A stretch of DNA of 64,000 nt, from the IMG/VR virus record IMGVR_UViG_3300028393_000050, one strand, 5' to 3'. Source of the DNA: an uncultured virus (IMG/VR IMGVR_UViG_3300028393_000050). Lineage: Duplodnaviria > Heunggongvirae > Uroviricota > Caudoviricetes. Below the pieces are notes generated by a model. That model did not search any database. It saw only the letters and a list, made by a program, of their open reading frames with translations, and was not told the origin of the DNA. Of the stretch, positions 1 to 60,690 are shown in pieces (the first letter of the stretch is position 1; each line of letters opens with the position of its first letter). Position numbers and translations under genes: made by a program.

Positions 1-92
1 GCCAACTCAACAAAAACTATTGACAACAAGTTGTCTACTAGTTTTACTATTACACAAGGTGAAGCGTATAGTGTAATAGTTGTTGAGTTGGC
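1..92. repeat. Branched inverted repeat (three-way junction)
   Basis: 1-12 pairs with 81-92; inner hairpins 13-45 and 46-80. Confidence 0.7.
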
Positions 93-127
93 GCGACACG
101 CCCGGGTGACATCGTTACACAAATGTT

Positions 128-159
128 ATAAAGAGAGGGCTGGTTTCCCAGCCCCCTCT
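128..159 (-). terminator. Intrinsic terminator of leftward operon
   Basis: GC stem GAGGGGGCTGG-GAAA-CCAGCCCTCTC then TTTAT on minus, just after the stop at 169. Confidence 0.65.
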
Positions 160-168
160 GTGTTGCTA

Positions 169-489
169 CTAAGACGGCATAAACGGTGAGTCTATTTCAT
201 CTAGCAGTGTTTCTAGTTCCTTAGCCCACTGCTCAGCCTTGACGACCATCAGTAGATACTTGGCTAGTTCCTCGTTGTTGCTAACTAACTTGGTTAGTTC
301 TATAACAGGTGTGGCTCTGCGTGGTTTCCTAGATGTCCAAGTTCTAGCAGGTGCGCCTAGTGGAGTCCCACGCCTTGCCCTCATTCGTAACTTTTGCTGT
401 TCATTCCAGCAAACTCGGCAACGGTATTGAGCAGTTAGTGCGTTAGACACTGTAAGATCGTGCCCTTGATTACAGGTTGTGTTTGTCAT
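169..489 (-). CDS. Small Zn-finger protein (CxxGH...CxxC)
   Basis: CNQGH and RCRVC motif resembling the Zn knuckle of actinophage HNH proteins; RBS AAGGAAATGAAATG. Confidence 0.7.
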   Translation of the reverse strand: MTNTTCNQGHDLTVSNALTAQYRCRVCWNEQQKLRMRARRGTPLGAPARTWTSRKPRRATPVIELTKLVSNNEELAKYLLMVVKAEQWAKELETLLDEIDSPFMPS

Positions 490-551
490 TTCATTTCCTT
501 ATCTGTTTGAATGTGTGAGTCAGTTTAGCCACTTGACTCAGGTGGTGTTGC
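490..551 (-). repeat. Intergenic cassette copy 1 (pseudoknot + RBS)
   Basis: GCAACA-CCAC-CTGAGTCA-A-GTGG-CTAAAC-TGACTCA...ACAGATAAGGAAATGAA before ATG. Confidence 0.85.
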
Positions 552-785
552 TTATAGTTCGAAAGTGCGAGGGAAAGTTATTACTGTCTCGCCCTTGTGG
601 CTGTGGTCTATGTCTAGGTCATAGCCCTTATCAATAGCCCAAGTGAGCAGTTGGATAATTTGCTTATCGCCCTCCCAAGCGTAGCCGTTGCATACATCGC
701 AAGTGCCTGATGCAGTGCCACAACCACGCTGGTTGATTAGGTTCGGCTTGTCGCTGAACAGGTGGATACTAGTTATTCTTGCCAT
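552..785 (-). CDS. Hypothetical protein with CxxC
   Basis: ORF fills the space between repeat cassettes; cassette RBS upstream. Confidence 0.7.
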   Translation of the reverse strand: MARITSIHLFSDKPNLINQRGCGTASGTCDVCNGYAWEGDKQIIQLLTWAIDKGYDLDIDHSHKGETVITFPRTFEL

Positions 786-846
786 TTCATTTCCTTATCT
801 GTTAGTTGTGGTTGAGCAGTTTATCCACTTGCTCAGGTGTTGTTGC
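786..846 (-). repeat. Intergenic cassette copy 2
   Basis: CAC-CTGAGCA-A-GTG-GATAAAC-TGCTCA...ACAGATAAGGAAATGAA. Confidence 0.85.
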
Positions 847-849
847 TAG

Positions 850-987
850 TTAGTGCTGTTCACAGCCACAGCAGTTATCGCAAGCGATAGGGTTGCTGTT
901 TGCGCAAACACAGAATACATCTAGTTCTGTTTTGCAGTTAGGACAGAGCGCTATCTGTCCTGTTGTAGTTCTGATAAACTCGTCCAT
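850..987 (-). CDS. 45-aa Cys-rich protein (8 Cys)
   Basis: Manual translation MDEFIRTTTGQIALCPNCKTELDVFCVCANSNPIACDNCCGCEQH; AGGA RBS. Confidence 0.65.
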   Translation of the reverse strand: MDEFIRTTTGQIALCPNCKTELDVFCVCANSNPIACDNCCGCEQH

Positions 988-989
988 TT

Positions 990-1076
990 TTATTTTCCTA
1001 ACTTAGATACTAGATAACCAATTGCAAAGGCAATAATCATTTCCAATAAATCTTGCCCGTTTATTATGTGTGTCAT
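990..1076 (-). CDS. 28-aa membrane micropeptide
   Basis: MTHIINGQDLLEMIIAFAIGYLVSKLGK directly after the cassette 3 RBS. Confidence 0.6.
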   Translation of the reverse strand: MTHIINGQDLLEMIIAFAIGYLVSKLGK

Positions 1077-1133
1077 TTCATTTCCTAACTGTTAGTGTGT
1101 GAGCAGTTTTGACACTTGCTCAGGTGTTGTTGC
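1077..1133 (-). repeat. Intergenic cassette copy 3
   Basis: ACAC-CTGAGCA-A-GTGT-CAAAAC-TGCTCA...ACAGTTAGGAAATGAA. Confidence 0.85.
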
Positions 1134-1136
1134 TGA

Positions 1137-1436
1137 CTAACCCTTGTGAATTGTCGGGAACTGTTCGAGCAGTTCGCCAATTGCTTCGAGTTCTGGCATA
1201 ACATACTGTGGAGCCGAACCGTTCACCTCGTCAACCTGCCAGAGTTCATCGAGAGACTGCCAAGTTGAAGCCTGAGCAATCTTGAAAGTGTCAATTCCCT
1301 TGACTGTGATAGTCAAGATAGACTCCTGACCGTTGACATCGTTGCCGACGGTGTAGCGTGATACCTTACCAATAACCGAACTATCTAACGCCTCGTTAGC
1401 AAGATAGATAGTGTCGCCAATAGATAACTTGAACAT
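1137..1436 (-). CDS. Hypothetical protein, first gene of leftward operon
   Basis: 99-aa ORF, GAGGG RBS. Confidence 0.7.
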   Translation of the reverse strand: MFKLSIGDTIYLANEALDSSVIGKVSRYTVGNDVNGQESILTITVKGIDTFKIAQASTWQSLDELWQVDEVNGSAPQYVMPELEAIGELLEQFPTIHKG

Positions 1437-1539
1437 AATTACTGCCCTCTGTTAGTGAACTACTTGCTTAGACACTTTATCTAAGTCCCGTTTCCCTAAC
1501 AAGATAAGACTATGCCCGAAATACAGACAAATGCGTATA

Positions 1540-1804
1540 GTTATCAAATCTTAATAAAGATTATTTCTGTTATCAAGCCGTAATCTAGATGGTTCTCGTT
1601 ATCAAACCGTTATAGAGGGGGGGTAGGGTTAGGCGTTATCAAATTGTTATAACCCAGCAGGGCACAGTTACTATTTTGGTTCAAGAAAGTTAGGCAGTAG
1701 CCTAACTTCGTGCCTAAAGGGCGGGGGTAGCGGGGGTGGCCGAACAGTGGTGCAGCTGTTTGGGTGTTTGGGTGTTTGTAGGCAGGTCGTTATCAAATCG
1801 TTAT
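1540..1804. promoter_or_regulatory. Cluster of GTTAT-CAAAnn-GTTAT boxes (OmpR/MtrA-type direct repeats)
   Basis: Copies at 1540, 1569, 1598, 1635, 1789; related copy at 114. Confidence 0.6.
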
Positions 1805-2008
1805 AATTGCTTTCAAGCTGTGGCCTGCGCAGCTAGTTAAATATTTGATTGTTCTTGTTTCAATAGGAATACTTATTTGATTGGTATAGCAGTGGTAGCT
1901 GCGCCGCCGAATGTTAAGCTCCTGCAAATATGCTATAAGTTAAAAACACGCACGTACGTGCTGATATGCAAAATGCTATTAGGGGGTTAAATGTTGTTGT
2001 TTATGATT

Positions 2009-2014
2009 TATACT
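2009..2014 (+). promoter_or_regulatory. -10 box of leaderless promoter
   Basis: TATACT 6 nt before ATG 2021, no SD. Confidence 0.55.
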
Positions 2015-2020
2015 GGACTA

Positions 2021-2326
2021 ATGAGACCTAAGAAAACGCAATTTAAAAAGAGTGGTGCTGATACTTCACGCAACGCACCCGGTAAGAGCACCTATAGCTT
2101 TGGAAATGGTGTGACAGCTCACTTAGGTGACGCTGACTTAAAGCATATGGCTCGTACCGATATGCCGGGCCATGAGTGGCATCCAGCTACCCCTACTGCA
2201 GTTAGAGACTGGGATAAGAGTAGCCCTCACCACACTTACATGGATTATATAAATGGCTGTAAGAAATGTGAAAGCTTGGAAAGCAGGCGGATGCACCCTA
2301 ATGGTAGTAAGATAACTGACGAGTAA
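2021..2326 (+). CDS. Small basic protein with MxPK tag
   Basis: Start refined to MRPKKTQFK. Confidence 0.7.
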   Translation: MRPKKTQFKKSGADTSRNAPGKSTYSFGNGVTAHLGDADLKHMARTDMPGHEWHPATPTAVRDWDKSSPHHTYMDYINGCKKCESLESRRMHPNGSKITDE

Positions 2327-2694
2327 TGAAGCCTCGTAAAGGGCAGTTTAAGTTCAATGGCCCGCTACAGATTACTCACTCAAAACTTACAGAACCTTCT
2401 GAGTTTGGTGATACAAAGATAACTGCTTCTAAATTTGGTAAAGAAGTTGGGCATATGGGGCTACATCGAGAAGATAGCCAACTTACTTTTGCTGACGGCG
2501 CGACCTCACTGAGTGGCGTAACTGGCAGTAAGAAGTTTCGTGAAGTAGCAATGGTTAGAGTAAATAAAGGCCAAAGACGTAAAGGTGTTGCAACAGCTAT
2601 GTGGAAGTACGCTAAAGACAACGACCTAAAGCCAGAGCATAGCGCCGCACAAACAGATGCAGGCAAAGCCTGGGCTAAGAAAGTAGGCGACTAA
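2326..2694 (+). CDS. GNAT-family acetyltransferase with MxPR tag
   Basis: VxVNKGQRRKGVATAMW acetyl-CoA motif A; AGKAW tail. Confidence 0.75.
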   Translation: MKPRKGQFKFNGPLQITHSKLTEPSEFGDTKITASKFGKEVGHMGLHREDSQLTFADGATSLSGVTGSKKFREVAMVRVNKGQRRKGVATAMWKYAKDNDLKPEHSAAQTDAGKAWAKKVGD

Positions 2695-2921
2695 TGAAGC
2701 CACGCGGGTTATATGAAGAGTTTGCAAAAGGTCGTTCTCCAGAGCTGCACCAAGTGCTAGGTGTAATGACCAAAAACAATGCCGTTTTAGGGCTGAACGT
2801 TATGGATGCAAGAAAAATAAATGACCGTATGTTTACGAGCCCAAGAGGGGCCACTCAACGGTATAGTGTATCTAGTAACGCAACTGATGCTGTACAACTA
2901 CCTTATGGAAATGTTCAATGA
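2694..2921 (+). CDS. Hypothetical protein with MxPR tag
   Basis: TAATG coupling. Confidence 0.6.
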   Translation: MKPRGLYEEFAKGRSPELHQVLGVMTKNNAVLGLNVMDARKINDRMFTSPRGATQRYSVSSNATDAVQLPYGNVQ

Positions 2922-3106
2922 ACCCAAAAGATAAACAGTTTAAACTTCAATTAAATGCTGAGCCAGCTGGCGAATCAATGTCTCTAGAGCACGCATACAA
3001 TGACGCTATGTCCCAAGACCCACGTTACAACACCCCGGAAGATTTAGAAGAGATGGGTAACGCGATGTTTAAAGCAGAACAGGAAAAGAAAAAGAATGCG
3101 TCCTAA
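2918..3106 (+). CDS. Hypothetical protein with MxPK tag
   Basis: ATGA overlap; MNPKDKQFK. Confidence 0.65.
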   Translation: MNPKDKQFKLQLNAEPAGESMSLEHAYNDAMSQDPRYNTPEDLEEMGNAMFKAEQEKKKNAS

Positions 3107-3428
3107 GAATCCTCAAATGACTAGAAATGAAACAGTTGACGCTAGAGACGAAGCAAGTCGCGCTAGTAGAAGTATTGTTAAAAACAATAACCCTGGTCAC
3201 CCGGTTGTAAAAGCTGCAATACAGCGCAACATTGTAGAAGGAAAAGTGCGAAATGCTGTAGATACCGGATTAACTGTTAACGAGGCAGATAGACGCTATA
3301 AAGCAGCAAAGAATAACGCTCAAAGACACGATGCCACAATTCAAGTTAAAGGCGGGGCTATTAGAAGAGCCCGTAACGGTGAGTCTATGGATTTAATTAT
3401 TGGCGTTAACCCAGATAGGAATAAATAA
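3096..3428 (+). CDS. Basic hypothetical protein with MxPK tag
   Basis: MRPKNPQM; overlaps upstream stop. Confidence 0.65.
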   Translation: MRPKNPQMTRNETVDARDEASRASRSIVKNNNPGHPVVKAAIQRNIVEGKVRNAVDTGLTVNEADRRYKAAKNNAQRHDATIQVKGGAIRRARNGESMDLIIGVNPDRNK

Positions 3429-3706
3429 TGCACCCTAAAAAACCACAACTAAGCGAAGGCGACAAGCTAGAGCGCGCAAACAACACTTTGGGCAAGCACA
3501 GAGGGCCTAAGCAACCTAACGACAAAAGGGCTAAAGAGCTTTTTGACAGAAACATGGGTGAACACGCAGTTCGCACTATGAAGGTTAAAGACGTTATCAA
3601 GGAGTACAAAGAAGACCCTGAAGCGTATACCGCAATTAGTGCTGAGTCTATTGGCCGTATGCGTCGTGGCGAGCCTTCTAAATACCACACTGACAAGGAT
3701 ATTTAA
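3428..3706 (+). CDS. Hypothetical protein with MxPK tag
   Basis: TAATG coupling; MHPKKPQL. Confidence 0.65.
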   Translation: MHPKKPQLSEGDKLERANNTLGKHRGPKQPNDKRAKELFDRNMGEHAVRTMKVKDVIKEYKEDPEAYTAISAESIGRMRRGEPSKYHTDKDI

Positions 3707-3712
3707 ACAAAA

Positions 3713-4051
3713 ATGGCTGCAAAGAAGAAAGTTACTGGTAAAAAGACTAAGACCCTAGCGGGTAAGACTTCCGATGGTAAAAAGGTTTACGGCCCATTCA
3801 AGGGTTCAAAGTCTAATGGTGGACGTCCTATGATGTCTGTCGTTAATAAAGATGGCTCACGTACATCTATTTCAGCTGCTAAATACAAGTATGAGAAAAC
3901 ACATGGCAAGTTGCCTAAAGGTGTGGATGTTGACCACAAAAACAATAACCACTCAGATGACAACGCCGGAAACCTACGCGCGCTAAAACACGGTAAGAAC
4001 ACCGCTAAAGAGAACAAGCGCCGTGCGGGTAAGAAAGAAAACGACAAATAA
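3713..4051 (+). CDS. HNH-motif protein, very basic
   Basis: DVDHKNNNHSDDNAGNLRALKHGKN. Confidence 0.75.
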   Translation: MAAKKKVTGKKTKTLAGKTSDGKKVYGPFKGSKSNGGRPMMSVVNKDGSRTSISAAKYKYEKTHGKLPKGVDVDHKNNNHSDDNAGNLRALKHGKNTAKENKRRAGKKENDK

Positions 4052-47743: not shown

Positions 47744-48298
47744 ATGTTATTACTCCCTAATAAAAAATACGACGTTATCTTAATGGACCCGCCATGGTCT
47801 TATTATGGCGCACAAGACAAGATGGGGGCTGCTGCAAAGTTTTATCCAACTATGTCGGATGAAGACTTAATAGCTATGGATATCCAAAGTATCCTAAACA
47901 AACCTGGCGTAATTTTTATGTGGGTAACATCGCCTCGCCTGGACTTTGCTATTGATCTTCTACGAGCATGGGGGTTTACATATAGAGGAGTTGCATTTAC
48001 ATGGGTGAAGACTCGCAAGGACGGCCTAACTCCAATCGGCGCGCAAGGCGTCCGCCCGAGCATCGTAAAACCGACAACGGAGTTTGTTATTGTTGCTTCA
48101 ACCGTTACCAAGGGCCGACCCCTACCCCTTGCGGACGAGGGTGTTCCCCATGTGGTTCTTGCTGCAAAGATGGAGCACTCGAGGAAGCCAGACGAAATCC
48201 ACCGAAGGATTGAGCGTCTGTACCCCAGCCAAGCAAAGCTAGAAATGTTTGCTCGTCGTCCTATGGATGGCTGGGATGTTTGGGGCAATGAGATATAA
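47744..48298 (+). CDS. MT-A70-family N6-adenine methyltransferase
   Basis: YDVI..DPPW, HSRKP, LEMFAR...GW..WGNE. Confidence 0.9.
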   Translation: MLLLPNKKYDVILMDPPWSYYGAQDKMGAAAKFYPTMSDEDLIAMDIQSILNKPGVIFMWVTSPRLDFAIDLLRAWGFTYRGVAFTWVKTRKDGLTPIGAQGVRPSIVKPTTEFVIVASTVTKGRPLPLADEGVPHVVLAAKMEHSRKPDEIHRRIERLYPSQAKLEMFARRPMDGWDVWGNEI

Positions 48299-52290: not shown

Positions 52291-52363
52291 GCCCCTATAG
52301 CTCATCTGGTAGAGCGACGCACTTGTAATGCGTAGGTGACGGGTTCAAGTCCTGTTGGGGGCC
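52291..52363 (+). tRNA. tRNA-Thr(UGU)
   Basis: Cloverleaf; ACGCA-CTTGTAA-TGCGT anticodon arm; GTTCAAGT T-loop; no encoded CCA. Confidence 0.92.
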
Positions 52364-52748: not shown

Positions 52749-53300
52749 ATGAAAATACGTGATCAATTCCCAGACCCGTGGGATAAACACAACAATCCAT
52801 ATGACCCATATGGTAAAGCAATTCCAAATCCGCATGACCCTGCGGATATTTATAAGAAATGGCAGAAACCGCCTGCCCCAAAGGTTATTACCATCAATGA
52901 CCTATTTCCAAGCCTAGACCGCTGGTCTATTGGCTGGTCCCCGCTGCTAGAGCAGCTTAAAGAGTTGTCAAATGCTAAGGCAAGTTATCCGCCTTATGAC
53001 ATTATTGACCACAAAGACGATACCACAGTCATCAATGTAGCTGTTGCTGGTTTCGATAAGAAAGAACTATCAATCACAGTAGAAGAACAGGCGTTGAAAA
53101 TTGAAGGTAAAAAGAAAGACAAAGAACAAGAAGGCGAACTCGTTCACAACGGTATCGCTGGACGCGATTTTAAGCTCACTTTTGCCCTTGCTGAATTTTA
53201 CGAAGTAGAGTCAGCCAAGGTAGAAAACGGGCTTTTATCAGTCAAGCTGTTTAAGAATATCCCTGATGAAAAGAAGCCAAAAGTCATTGATATCAAGTAA
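52749..53300 (+). CDS. Small heat shock protein (Hsp20)
   Basis: YPPYDI, AVAGF, GIA.R.F...F.L, A..ENGLL. Confidence 0.92.
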   Translation: MKIRDQFPDPWDKHNNPYDPYGKAIPNPHDPADIYKKWQKPPAPKVITINDLFPSLDRWSIGWSPLLEQLKELSNAKASYPPYDIIDHKDDTTVINVAVAGFDKKELSITVEEQALKIEGKKKDKEQEGELVHNGIAGRDFKLTFALAEFYEVESAKVENGLLSVKLFKNIPDEKKPKVIDIK

Positions 53301-53313
53301 ACTATGATGGCTA

Positions 53314-53384
53314 TGGTTCTAAGTGTTACGGTAGCACGGCGGTCTCCAACACCGCAGGCGTAGGTTCGACTCCTACAGAACCAG
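53314..53384 (+). tRNA. tRNA-Trp(CCA)
   Basis: TGGTTCT/AGAACCA acceptor, GCGGT-CTCCAAC-ACCGC, GTTCGACT, G discriminator. Confidence 0.88.
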
Positions 53385-54068: not shown

Positions 54069-54286
54069 TGGGACGCATGGCAGATTTAGACGCAGAGATG
54101 CACGAACTACCTGACAACGCTAAAGACTTTATGCAGGGTTTTGATAGAGGTCGTGCTGAAGGAATTGTTATTGGTCAAGAAGAAGGTGCGGCTATGGAAC
54201 GCGTCCGACTTATTGAGTTATTTGAGAAAAGCGACTCAGCTGCTGCTGGGTGGGTTATTGCCGTTATCAATGGAGAAGCCAATTAG
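54068..54286 (+). CDS. Hypothetical protein
   Basis: TAATG coupling, GGAG RBS. Confidence 0.6.
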   Translation: MGRMADLDAEMHELPDNAKDFMQGFDRGRAEGIVIGQEEGAAMERVRLIELFEKSDSAAAGWVIAVINGEAN

Positions 54287-54725
54287 CCAAATAAATTCTG
54301 GTCTATACTCTAGCGCAACTGATGACTGGGGTACGCCTCAAGCATTGTTTGACGAGTTAAACGATGAATTTAGTTTTACCCTAGATGCCTGTGCTAGCGC
54401 ACATAACTTTAAAGTAAATGTTTATTTTAATGAAAAAATTAATGCGCTAGTGCAGGACTGGGCGGGCATCGTATGGATGAACCCGCCTTACGGTCGTGCT
54501 ATTGGTAAATGGATGAAAAAAGCATTTGAAGAATCTCAAAAAGGTGCTACTGTAGTTTGTTTAGTACCCGCTAGAACCGATACCGCTTGGTGGCATGATT
54601 ATGCTATTAAAGGTGAGATAAGGTTTTTAAGAGGCAGACTAAAGTTTGAACAACCAGGGTTTGTAAAAAATAGTTCAGCACCTTTTCCAAGTGCTATAGT
54701 AATTTTTAAAGGAATTAACTCATGA
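54270..54725 (+). CDS. Phage DNA N6-adenine methyltransferase (Dam-like)
   Basis: W.TP, F.LDAC, WMNPPY, LVPARTDT.WW, GRLKF. Confidence 0.9.
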   Translation: MEKPISQINSGLYSSATDDWGTPQALFDELNDEFSFTLDACASAHNFKVNVYFNEKINALVQDWAGIVWMNPPYGRAIGKWMKKAFEESQKGATVVCLVPARTDTAWWHDYAIKGEIRFLRGRLKFEQPGFVKNSSAPFPSAIVIFKGINS

Positions 54726-60315: not shown

Positions 60316-60690
60316 TTGTCTAACCCGTTTGTCAATTTATTTACAGAACCTGAACCTTGGGAATATCAAGCTAAATGCGGTACGCGTGTTTACAAAGAAG
60401 AAACTAAAGAATACGTAAATGTTTACGACCCCGATCTTTGGTTTCCGCCTAGAGATAAGGCTTTATACAAACCAATAGCTGATAAGGCTAAATCAATTTG
60501 TTTTGGGCGCGATGGCCGACCAGAATGCCCAGTTAGACTTCAATGTTTAATGGCAGCAGATAAACGTGATGAAGTGCACGGCATCATGGGAGGTATGAGT
60601 CACCGTGAAAGAAACGCTTTAAAACGTAAAGCTGAAAAACAAGGAACTACTTTAGAAGAACTTGCTAAAAAATCTAGTAGACATTCCTAA
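60316..60690 (+). CDS. whiB: WhiB-family transcription factor
   Basis: A.C, D.WFP, AK.IC, CPV..QC, GIMGG.S..ER. Confidence 0.88.
   Translation: MSNPFVNLFTEPEPWEYQAKCGTRVYKEETKEYVNVYDPDLWFPPRDKALYKPIADKAKSICFGRDGRPECPVRLQCLMAADKRDEVHGIMGGMSHRERNALKRKAEKQGTTLEELAKKSSRHS

Follow-up and report, generated by a model that had tools for sequence, protein, structure and literature searches.

The early genes of an uncultured virus of the class Caudoviricetes (IMG/VR record IMGVR_UViG_3300028393_000050; a stretch of 64,000 nucleotides (nt), hereafter the window, was analysed) include a leftward operon that carries three short repeated elements between its genes. Comparative sequence analysis shows that each element is a conserved H-type RNA pseudoknot of 28-33 nt, referred to below as the knot. 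The motif is widespread in phages and absent from Rfam. The knot is tied to the gene upstream of it, and not to the start of the gene downstream. We tentatively favour the view that it would form the 3′ boundary structure of the upstream cistron, acting either as a barrier to exonucleases or as a terminator stem.

Three copies of the knot in a leftward operon

An earlier note on this DNA, made from its letters alone, had described three intergenic copies on the minus strand, and all three were found in the places and with the layout proposed. Starting from the stop codon of the preceding gene, each copy reads GCAACA, P1a, C, P2a, A, P1b, nnAAAC and P2b, where P1 and P2 are the two stems, followed by an AC-rich spacer and the sequence AGGAAATGAAATG, which contains the ribosome-binding site (RBS) and the start of the next gene. 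The operon consists of the following elements.

169..1436 (-), leftward operon of five small genes, punctuated by knots
1137..1436 (-), gene g1, 99 amino acids (aa)
1128..1136 (-), spacer TCAGCAACA, which joins the g1 stop TAG (1137-1139) to copy A and holds the GCAACA flank
1100..1127 (-), knot copy A, ACAC-C-TGAGCA-A-GTGT-CAAAAC-TGCTCA, with P1a at 1127-1124 and P2b at 1105-1100; covariance model score 51.9 bits
1074..1099 (-), AC-rich, G-poor spacer with the RBS and start AGGAAATGAAATG (1074-1086) of g2, unpaired in the predicted fold
990..1076 (-), gene g2, 28 aa
850..987 (-), gene g3, 45 aa
841..849 (-), spacer CTAGCAACA, which joins the g3 stop TAA (850-852) to copy B
813..840 (-), knot copy B, ACAC-C-TGAGCA-A-GTGG-ATAAAC-TGCTCA, with an A.G mismatch as the outer P1 pair; 53.3 bits
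783..812 (-), AC-rich spacer with the RBS and start AGGAAATGAAATG (783-795) of g4
552..785 (-), gene g4, 77 aa
546..551 (-), spacer GCAACA, which joins the g4 stop TAA (552-554) to copy C
516..545 (-), knot copy C, CCAC-C-TGAGTCA-A-GTGG-CTAAAC-TGACTCA, with a P2 of 7 base pairs (bp); 45.8 bits
487..515 (-), AC-rich spacer with the RBS and start AGGAAATGAAATG (487-499) of g5
169..489 (-), gene g5, 106 aa
125..166 (-), operon terminator, with GCAACAC at 166-160, a 12-bp GC-rich hairpin at 159-132 and then UUUAUAA

The knots are placed behind the stop codons of g1, g3 and g4, at a distance of 6-9 nt from the stop and 26-30 nt before the next ATG, and lie 287-296 nt apart with genes between them. 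The GCAACA flank is common to all three copies and to the operon terminator, the hairpin of which is preceded by stop-UA-GCAACAC. The RBS and start sequence AGGAAATGAAATG occurs exactly three times in the 64 kb, and the 5′ half of the knot, CACCTGAG(N)CAAGTG, gave three matches in the window compared to none in 100 shuffled sequences. A covariance model of the motif (described below) recovered the three copies only, the next best window match scoring 9.9 bits (E=1). A generic scan of the window for H-type knots of the same geometry returned 24 candidates, against 4-14 in shuffled sequences, none of them convincing beyond the known copies. Prediction of nested folds gave a P2 hairpin of -9 to -11 kcal/mol and left the RBS unpaired. 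The five micro-proteins encoded by the operon had no match in Pfam or NCBIfam.

Copies A and C form a perfect 4-bp P1 (ACAC/GUGU and CCAC/GUGG, respectively). The covariation of P1 claimed in the earlier note was therefore borne out for these two copies (ACAC/GTGT versus CCAC/GTGG) and failed in copy B because of its mismatched outermost pair. The compensatory indel claimed for P2 was upheld, as copy C carries one inserted base in both arms (UGAGUCA/UGACUCA). Three paralogous copies by themselves are weak evidence for structure; about 125 further instances are decisive.

Covariation in both stems across the motif family

The consensus of the motif comprises a P1 of 3-4 bp, a one-base loop C (L1), a P2 of 6-7 bp, usually UGAGCA/UGCUCA, a one-base junction (L2) and an A-rich loop ending in AAAC (L3). 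Scanning viral contigs with CACCTGAG(N)CAAGTG returned at least 121 loci and at least 124 matches. The exact complement of P2a was present within 22 nt downstream in 29 of the 124 matches listed, and it was preceded by AAC in 27 of these 29. A covariance model was built from 29 sequences and used to search the full records behind 26 of the viral-contig loci, which yielded extra diverged copies, e.g., six in record G010 and four each in G006 and G017. In the diverged copies, P1 changed in a compensatory manner from CAC/GUG to CUC/GAG, AAC/GUU, CAU/AUG or GAC/GUC. P2 likewise changed from UGAGCA/UGCUCA to UAAGCA/UGCUUA or UGGGUA/UGCCCA, in addition to U.G wobbles; the pair TAAGCA/TGCTTA occurs in Clostridium phage phiCT19406B, and TGGGTA/TGCCCA in locus L130.

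A second scan, with P1 left free, was run over prokaryotes (one genome per species) with the pattern CCTGAGCA-N6-16-AAACTGCTCA and gave at least 118 loci and at least 119 matches. A 3-bp P1 in the expected register was found in 57 of the 119 matches listed, compared to 6, 0 and 1 in shifted registers and a mean of 14.3 (maximum 24) when the partners were permuted 1000 times. The other matches lay mostly within coding sequence and were chance-like.

The instances were collected in a catalogue of 128 distinct instances with 112 distinct knot sequences. Since the catalogue was selected for pairing, the percentage of paired positions is meaningless there, while the variety of pairs is still informative. 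At one position of P1, the 112 knots carry GC in 52 cases, CG in 36, AU in 17 and UA in 3; at another, AU in 57, UA in 42, CG in 6 and GC in 3. The changes in P2 include AU to GC (7), GC to AU (2) and CG to UA (2), as well as U.G and G.U wobbles. The L1 base is C in all 112 knots, as required by the collecting script, and AAAC is invariant or nearly so. The L2 base is A in 76 instances, U in 40, C in 11 and G in 1, and L3 is 6 nt long in 99 of 128. The non-Watson-Crick exceptions in the stems are G.U pairs on the sense strand.

More than 100 instances show covariation in both stems, with the G.U exceptions on the sense strand, and the motif runs in the direction of the genes. The comparative evidence therefore indicates an RNA-level pseudoknot and not a duplex DNA site. 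This is in line with the earlier note, which had argued for RNA structure from the window alone and had suggested a covariance model and a search for homologues; that search found covariation in both stems.

Placement relative to genes

The knots are mostly intergenic: of 117 instances, 10 fall within a same-strand open frame of 100 codons or more and 12 within one on the opposite strand. In 58 of 122 instances, the knot is preceded at 0-15 nt by the end of a same-strand open reading frame (ORF) of 50 or more codons, compared to 29 of 470 random positions. In a second count, an ORF end was present 0-15 nt upstream in 55 of 111 instances on the sense strand versus 10 of 111 on the opposite strand. 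The distance from the stop codon to the knot peaks at 5-9 nt and is shorter than 5 nt in only two of 58 cases, and the distance from the knot to the next start is broad (13-146 nt, 10th-90th percentile). The placement of the knot follows the preceding gene and not the next start codon. The six bases behind it are depleted of G (3-14 of 126 per position), and nothing else is conserved there.

The genes in front of the knot are varied. Among 43 upstream ORFs, DUF932 was found nine times, DUF3768 twice, and ArdA, DUF2958 and a minor capsid protein once each, together with a ribonucleotide reductase fragment. A ribonucleotide reductase gene also precedes the knot in Roseophage SIO1, and in Lactobacillus phage phig1e and Staphylococcus phage StB12, the upstream gene is a small one located between the minor head and scaffold genes.

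A stop-to-knot spacer of 5-9 nt with a sharp lower limit would also suit an element that acts on translation. The same spacing is the geometry of pseudoknots that stimulate frameshifting and readthrough. Located at the mRNA entry channel, the knot might modulate termination, ribosome release or re-initiation, or insulate cistrons from one another, and its G-poor, unstructured flanks and the unpaired RBS of the predicted fold agree with such a function. However, the extensions behind the stop codon bear no recoding signature, and the copies located directly before tRNAs, ribozymes and U-tracts have no downstream cistron to couple; we consider this explanation unlikely. Recoding in particular was rejected, as the in-frame extension has a median of 13.5 codons and extensions of at least 40 codons occurred in 7 of 58 cases in the 0 frame, 5 of 58 in the -1 frame and 7 of 58 in the +1 frame. 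The post-stop extensions in the window are 15, 16 and 8 codons long.

End-forming elements behind the knot

In a part of the family, the knot is directly followed by an element at which an RNA end is formed. In 5 of 128 instances, which probably represent one module of DUF932, knot and tRNA, a tRNA begins 1-6 nt behind the knot. Independently of this module, Arthrobacter phage Amigo has the stop codon of the SSB gene followed by 8 nt, the knot, 2 nt and tRNA-Gly. A tRNA lies behind the knot in L256 as well. In L185, a contig of a Polynucleobacter metagenome-assembled genome (MAG), four knots were found within 1.4 kb of small genes, two of them directly followed by hammerheads; one is a type III hammerhead detected by Rfam (1719-1773 (-)) that overlaps the last three bases of the knot, and the second was recognized by eye. 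In two Firmicutes-type loci, L214 (1526-1686) and L257 (143-300), the DUF2800 RNA (RF02960) begins at the base that immediately follows the knot, so this RNA motif may have an unrecognized 5′ companion; the P1 of the knot in L214 carries a mismatch. A T-run occurs within 12 nt of the knot in 19 of 121 instances, compared to 1 and 5 in the controls, mostly 0-3 nt behind P2b in the manner of an intrinsic terminator.

Such neighbours raise the question of whether the knot is itself the processing site, either as a minimal self-cleaving RNA or as a mimic of the tRNA acceptor that is cut by RNase P. Like small ribozymes, it is distributed independently of host lineage and has hammerheads, tRNAs and other phage RNA motifs as neighbours. 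The pseudoknotted tRNA-like ends of plant viruses have a similar topology with a 3′ tail leaving P2b, and the 5′ half of pistol ribozymes contains a similar knot of P1 loop and 3′ strand with an A-rich linker. We nevertheless regard this explanation as very unlikely. Only five unpaired bases are conserved (C and AAAC), with no further conserved domain on either side; no ribozyme family of Rfam matched; only 9 of 126 instances are followed by CCA; and a self-cleaving knot would render an adjoining hammerhead or tRNA redundant.

Several other candidates were rejected. The T7 promoter core resembles TAAAC-TG(A)CTCAC, which was the source of the idea that the motif is a promoter of a phage single-subunit RNA polymerase. 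No T7-like polymerase was present among the window ORFs, nothing is conserved past CTCA, the upstream arm varies in step with the downstream arm, and the 5′ ends of tRNAs lie only 1-6 nt behind the motif. For the window copies, an intrinsic terminator was dismissed because an AC-rich spacer and no U-tract lies behind the knot. A riboswitch of the preQ1-I type was dismissed because the flanking genes are heterogeneous, the RBS is not sequestered and copies also occur before tRNAs and ribozymes. No promoter-like or terminator-like site was found on the minus strand within the three cassettes.

Related phages and cassette exchange

Two related viral contigs, L279 and L280, were retrieved via g5 and g1. 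The gene order in L279 is gX (159 aa), knot, g2, gY (66 aa), knot C and g5, so that unrelated genes replace g1 and g3-g4 between conserved knots; its first knot is followed by a different spacer and RBS. The order in L280 is g1, a variant knot, g2, g4, knot C and UUUAUAACA, with g3, knot B, g5 and the terminator hairpin missing. The variant knot of L280 has the same topology built from other stems (ACAG-U-UGGCAG-AC-CUGU-AAAA-CUGCCA), and its spacer and RBS are those of the window. As L279 has a new spacer and RBS with the same knot and L280 shows the converse, the knot and the RBS module are separable, which runs counter to the claim of the earlier note that they are fused as one unit. Knot C of L280 is joined straight to the U-rich tail UUUAUAACA, which in the window trails the terminator hairpin. 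Together with the shared GCAACAC flank, this arrangement means that knot and terminator hairpin hold equivalent places. Two long hairpin-like inverted repeats were also observed in the early region of L279 (4296-4432 and 5062-5186), with spurious matches to miRNA and snoRNA families.

The gene replacements and deletions in L279 and L280 relative to the window are bounded by knots or RBS modules. The proposal that the cassettes provide homology for gene shuffling was thus supported, since they mark the break points of exchange in both related contigs. Contigs of related strains from freshwater metagenomes showed further joints at cassettes, namely 509>1095, 1127>546, 850>1026 (with 216 other letters) and 990>1209; contigs can misjoin at repeats, so these joints are only a weak hint.

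The coincidence of break points with cassettes, including the contig joints 509>1095, 1127>546 and 850>1026, would also be expected of a DNA-level element, i.e., a recombination site or the end of a mobile element, the structure of which is incidental or acts in single-stranded DNA. Locus L262, from a Leptolyngbyaceae MAG, can be read in the same way, as a sequence of about 38 nt is present there in two copies, with the knot between them, where a histidine-kinase gene has its 3′ end (260-375). However, G.U pairs are confined to the sense strand and the motif is strictly oriented with the genes and located behind stop codons, which is at odds with such an element; the contig joints are possibly assembly artefacts, and neither a transposase nor an integrase was found with the motif among the 43 upstream ORFs. 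A purely DNA-level role therefore appears highly improbable. The reading frame of L262 now passes through the knot, and the locus resembles an insertion with duplication.

The phage itself is myovirus-like, comes from freshwater metagenomes, has a GC content of about 42% and encodes tail sheath, tube and baseplate proteins, DnaB, Pol A and RecA. The best named relative of its terminase is that of Streptomyces phage BRock (54.6% identity). Because of a WhiB-family gene (60316-60687 (+)), the freshwater origin and the GC content of about 42%, an actinobacterial host is plausible.

Distribution of the motif and its absence from catalogues

Rfam 15 was searched with the whole window at the gathering threshold, which identified two tRNAs only and nothing at the knots, and with window positions 100-2000 at E<=10, which gave no match at the knots. 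At the gathering threshold, 20 knot-bearing loci returned neighbouring RNAs only, and six further loci searched at E<=5 had no match at the knot positions. The families without a match at the knots include STAXI (RF01728), preQ1-I (RF00522), pistol (RF02679), the hammerheads and the RAGATH motifs. The comparison with Rfam that the earlier note had called for thus turned up no characterized family at the knots of the window or of the 26 other loci.

Judged by record titles, the prokaryotic carriers include Saccharibacteria and other candidate phyla, Firmicutes, Bacteroidota, Actinomycetes, Chloroflexi, Delta- and Alphaproteobacteria, Omnitrophota, one cyanobacterium, one Polynucleobacter MAG and two Methanobrevibacter MAGs. 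Titles interpreted as Gammaproteobacteria accounted for none of the 56 knot loci, compared to 11 of 62 chance-hit loci, among the matches listed. Likewise, a 33-nt knot query had no match in 5,426 complete E. coli genomes. Deposited phage genomes were searched by BLAST with 33-nt knots, and the sequences were checked in five phages. The cultured phages that carry the motif include Roseophage SIO1 and its relatives Lentibacter ICBM1-3 and Celeribacter P12053L, as well as Clostridium phage phiCT19406B, Arthrobacter phages of the Amigo group, Lactobacillus phage phig1e, Staphylococcus phage StB12, the crAss-like phages cr7_1, cr124_1 and cr8_1, and Synechococcus phage S-H35. As the knot is present in cultured phages, it is directly testable. 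On plasmids, convincing knots occurred only in Clostridium phage-plasmids, and the rest resembled coding chance hits. In L263, from a Cloacimonadota MAG, a CRISPR array with a 37-nt repeat was observed at about 260-600; one of its spacers holds a complete knot (AGTCCTGAGCAAGACTATAAACTGCTCA), which means that the host has targeted a knot-bearing invader.

A nucleotide search of a phage database with window positions 1-3000 gave no match, and the nearest virus record, G001, had no match to window positions 1-2400. A full-text literature search for six motif strings of 10-12 nt returned unrelated papers only. A description of the motif was not found by a keyword search of the literature, the large supplementary catalogues of candidate phage RNAs lying outside that search. 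The accessible main text of PMC10690425 does not mention the motif, and its supplements (about 10,000 candidate RNAs) could contain it; nor is it mentioned in the accessible main text of the preprint 10.64898/2026.09.22.753630, and a search within PMC7038950 retrieved no passage.

The earlier note had viewed the knot as a 5′ module of the downstream cistron: processing at or upstream of the knot, or a block to RNase J, would give each next cistron a stable 5′ end coupled to a strong RBS. The window knots lie 26-30 nt before a strong RBS and start, the WhiB gene makes an actinobacterial host plausible, true knots were not seen in the Gammaproteobacteria-titled records listed or in the complete E. 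coli genomes, and the knots of phig1e and StB12 precede scaffold and capsid genes. RNase J, searched as TIGR00649 in 50 motif-bearing and 50 control genomes, was somewhat commoner in the former (29/50 versus 22/50 controls at E<=1e-20, with 17/50 controls over the cut-off). On the other hand, 21 of the 50 motif-bearing genomes had no detected RNase J, including records titled Segatella, Chitinophaga, Flavobacteriales, Sphingobacteriaceae and Melioribacter, and it was not detected in any motif-bearing genome titled Bacteroidota, with the caveat that MAGs are incomplete. The knot keeps its distance to the stop codon before it and not to the start that follows, relatives carry the knot with another RBS module and the RBS module with another knot, and wherever a tRNA, hammerhead or U-tract comes next, the knot is severed from the downstream RNA. 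These findings argue against a stable 5′ end as the general role and do not support RNase J as the general explanation; a 5′ module of the downstream cistron is unlikely.

A protein operator, bound by a phage regulator, a phage nuclease or a conserved host factor that co-regulates or processes the marked transcripts, would account for conservation beyond the needs of pairing (the L1 C, AAAC and UGAGCA/UGCUCA), for several copies per genome in early or accessory regions, such as the six in G010, and for the enrichment of mobile-element families (DUF932, ArdA, DUF3768 and DUF2958) among the upstream genes. However, no protein family was found to accompany the motif across its carriers, and the five micro-proteins of the window match nothing. 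Because the carriers are very different phage types with very different hosts, a phage-encoded partner would need an equally wide spread, and we consider an operator quite unlikely.

A possible 3′ boundary of the upstream cistron

The reading of the knot as the 3′ boundary structure of the upstream cistron, which we hold tentatively and with less than even confidence, starts from its position. A spacer of at least 5 nt is about the closest that a structure can sit to a stop codon in the A site without being unwound. Since such a spacer clears the terminating ribosome, the knot would stay folded while the gene is translated; it would fold as near to the stop codon as possible without being unwound by the terminating ribosome. 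If the RNA is cut or ends right behind the knot, through RNase P at a tRNA, a hammerhead or a U-tract, the knot would become the 3′-terminal fold and could halt 3′-to-5′ exonucleases, its A-rich loop ending in AAAC running along P1. With a U-tract, the knot itself would be the terminator stem. Between cistrons, as in the window, it would stop decay arriving from downstream, so that each upstream segment of the message could survive alone. In the lineage of the window, the knot, the GCAACA flank and the strong RBS module may in addition serve as short homologies for the exchange of early-gene cassettes. The blocking of nucleases and any effect on expression are what we infer from the structure, spread, position and neighbours of the knot.

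Several observations weigh against this view. The three window copies are followed by AC-rich spacers and lack a U-tract, tRNA or ribozyme on that side, which leaves the window without a visible end-forming step. The conserved P2 sequence, the L1 C and AAAC are more than a plain barrier needs and are unexplained by the boundary model; this surplus may reflect specific recognition or an exact tertiary structure. Equally unexplained is the absence of true knots from gammaproteobacterial records among the matches listed. In siphoviruses of Firmicutes, the knot is found ahead of the genes for the scaffold and the major capsid protein, a position that would suit a downstream-gene role too. The folding energies of single sequences were unremarkable (z of -0.1 to -1.5), as calculated by a program that cannot model pseudoknots. 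A single metatranscriptome run gave contigs over 100-487 and 923-989 only and was uninformative on ends or strand.

In some families, moreover, the upstream frame seems to end inside the knot, which misfits a structure kept out of the ribosome’s reach. A stand-alone unit of this kind was observed in MAGs of very different phyla (L193, L195, L210, L213, L221, L232, L235, L253 and L275). It consists of a promoter-like sequence, a strong Shine-Dalgarno sequence, an ORF of about 20 codons and the knot, and the UGA stop of the ORF is the UGA of P2a. The ORF has the consensus M-K-R-Y/F-x-V/I-P-R-x-A-H-C-x-E-G-C-x-x-x-S, and the peptide of about 20 aa has no NCBIfam name. A hairpin terminator follows the knot of this unit in L210 and L221. 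In Saccharibacteria, an ORF possibly ends in L3 of the knot.

A broader proposal, which we consider doubtful, is that the knot represents a host-lineage-independent RNA class. It might be a universal 3′ cap, in which a minimal triple-helix pseudoknot is combined with any end-forming device, or a minimal processing or catalytic RNA; either way, it would form a recombination joint for portable early genes. A universal 3′ cap would be the prokaryotic counterpart of MALAT1/ENE 3′-end protection. If the knot is a general boundary proof against nucleases or ribosomes, it could explain the separate fates of cistrons on long phage transcripts and provide a very small portable insulator or stabilizer for synthetic operons. 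A general boundary would also fill a gap in RNA catalogues and improve the annotation of intergenic phage DNA.

Other features of the window

Further features were observed around the operon. Iterons of about 19 nt (CGTTATCAAATYGTTATAA, plus strand) occupy 1539-1806, where the leftward operon and the rightward genes diverge. The iteron core TTGATAAC occurs five times on the minus strand (at 1540, 1569, 1598, 1635 and 1789), and a fifth, weaker copy of the 19-nt iteron lies at 113-131, behind the operon terminator. The iterons may be an operator, an origin or tandem -35 sites. At the left window edge, just past the operon terminator, a perfect 13-nt inverted repeat (GCCAACTCAACAA / TTGTTGAGTTGGC) is formed by positions 1-13 and 80-92, and a similar inverted repeat follows knot C in the relative L280 (about 3230-3315).

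Positions 1991-3706 (+) contain a run of six small basic ORFs with mostly overlapping stop and start codons. Five of them start with M-x-P-(K/R)-x-x-Q (MRPKKTQFKK, MKPRKGQFKF, MNPKDKQFKL, MRPKNPQMTR and MHPKKPQLSE), and they look like a paralogous early family; a weak GNAT match of one ORF was the sole match. Elsewhere, two DNA methyltransferases (MT-A70 and Dam) and an HNH_3 endonuclease were recorded, the regions concerned, including Hsp20, being 47744-48295, 54141-54722, 52749-53297 and 3713-4048. The Hsp20 gene is flanked by two tRNA genes (52291-52363 and 53314-53384).

Comparison with known systems

A parallel to the proposed boundary function is found in MALAT1 and MEN-beta, the triple-helix 3′ end of which precedes a tRNA-like RNase P site, so that cleavage leaves a protective 3′ end. 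The likeness lies in a compact A-rich knot directly 5′ of a tRNA, with gaps of 1-6 nt. However, these are eukaryotic nuclear long non-coding RNAs with a triple helix of U-rich and A-rich strands, whereas only a minority of the knots precede a tRNA and their protective role is only proposed. The REP/BIME elements of enterobacteria, the nearest functional analogue as regards mRNA protection, are transcribed multi-copy elements located behind stop codons in operons, where they shield upstream mRNA from 3′ exonucleases and bring about differential expression. REPs are simple imperfect palindromes of host chromosomes mobilized by RAYT transposases, whereas the element described here is a phage pseudoknot with no associated transposase seen.

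Classical H-type knots include the T2/T4 gene 32 leader, the luteovirus frameshift knots and the MuLV readthrough knot. They share with the present motif a one-base loop over a stem 2 of 6-7 bp and an A-rich loop along a short GC-rich stem 1, proportions that are those of the most compact H-type knots known. The spacer of 5-9 nt resembles that of recoding knots, but there is neither a slippery site nor a conserved extension frame. Unlike the gene 32 operator, the knot is not bound to one gene. The gene 32 pseudoknot is mentioned in PMC10690425.

The nearest catalogued element is STAXI (RF01728), according to PMC2864571 a pseudoknot present in tandem copies near ssb, antirestriction and integrase genes, without a known function. 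Both are small multi-copy pseudoknots near genes for DNA handling in mobile elements, here DUF932, ArdA and SSB upstream. The neighbourhood of the knots is mixed: ArdA (1), DUF932 (9) and DUF3768 (2) were found among the 43 upstream ORFs and SSB in Amigo, along with ribonucleotide reductase, minor head proteins and many unknowns. Even at E<=5-10, the RF01728 model did not match the knots. STAXI elements are tandem, often have UUCG loops and are listed for Enterobacteriales in a table of PMC2864571, whereas the knots are single units with genes between them, have no hairpin tetraloop and do not occur in the E. coli genomes searched. Most records hold single or dispersed copies of the knot and not the two or three tandem repeats of STAXI.

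The PeSL cassettes of T4-type phages, promoter-terminator stem-loops by the titles of PMC2839356 and PMC4122927 and the nearest functional analogue as regards shuffling, are likewise short repeated cassettes between small variable early genes that offer homology for modular shuffling, and L279 and L280 differ from the window at such cassettes. In contrast to PeSLs, the cassettes described here have no promoter-like hexamers, consist of a pseudoknot and an RBS, and contain a knot conserved far past one phage group. The conserved intergenic repeats and stem-loops of cluster M mycobacteriophages, as described in PMC7953290, are also repeated structured elements between accessory genes, and inserted genes bring their own copy; they have other sequences and folds and are lineage-specific, whereas the knot crosses phyla. 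Repeated structured elements known from between the accessory genes of phages are mostly hairpins and specific to single lineages. The knot, of about 30 nt, is near-identical in phages of Actinobacteria, Firmicutes, Bacteroidota (crAss-like), Alphaproteobacteria, cyanobacteria and candidate phyla. Intercistronic structured elements of phages were known as such; what is new here is a pseudoknot family that spans phyla.

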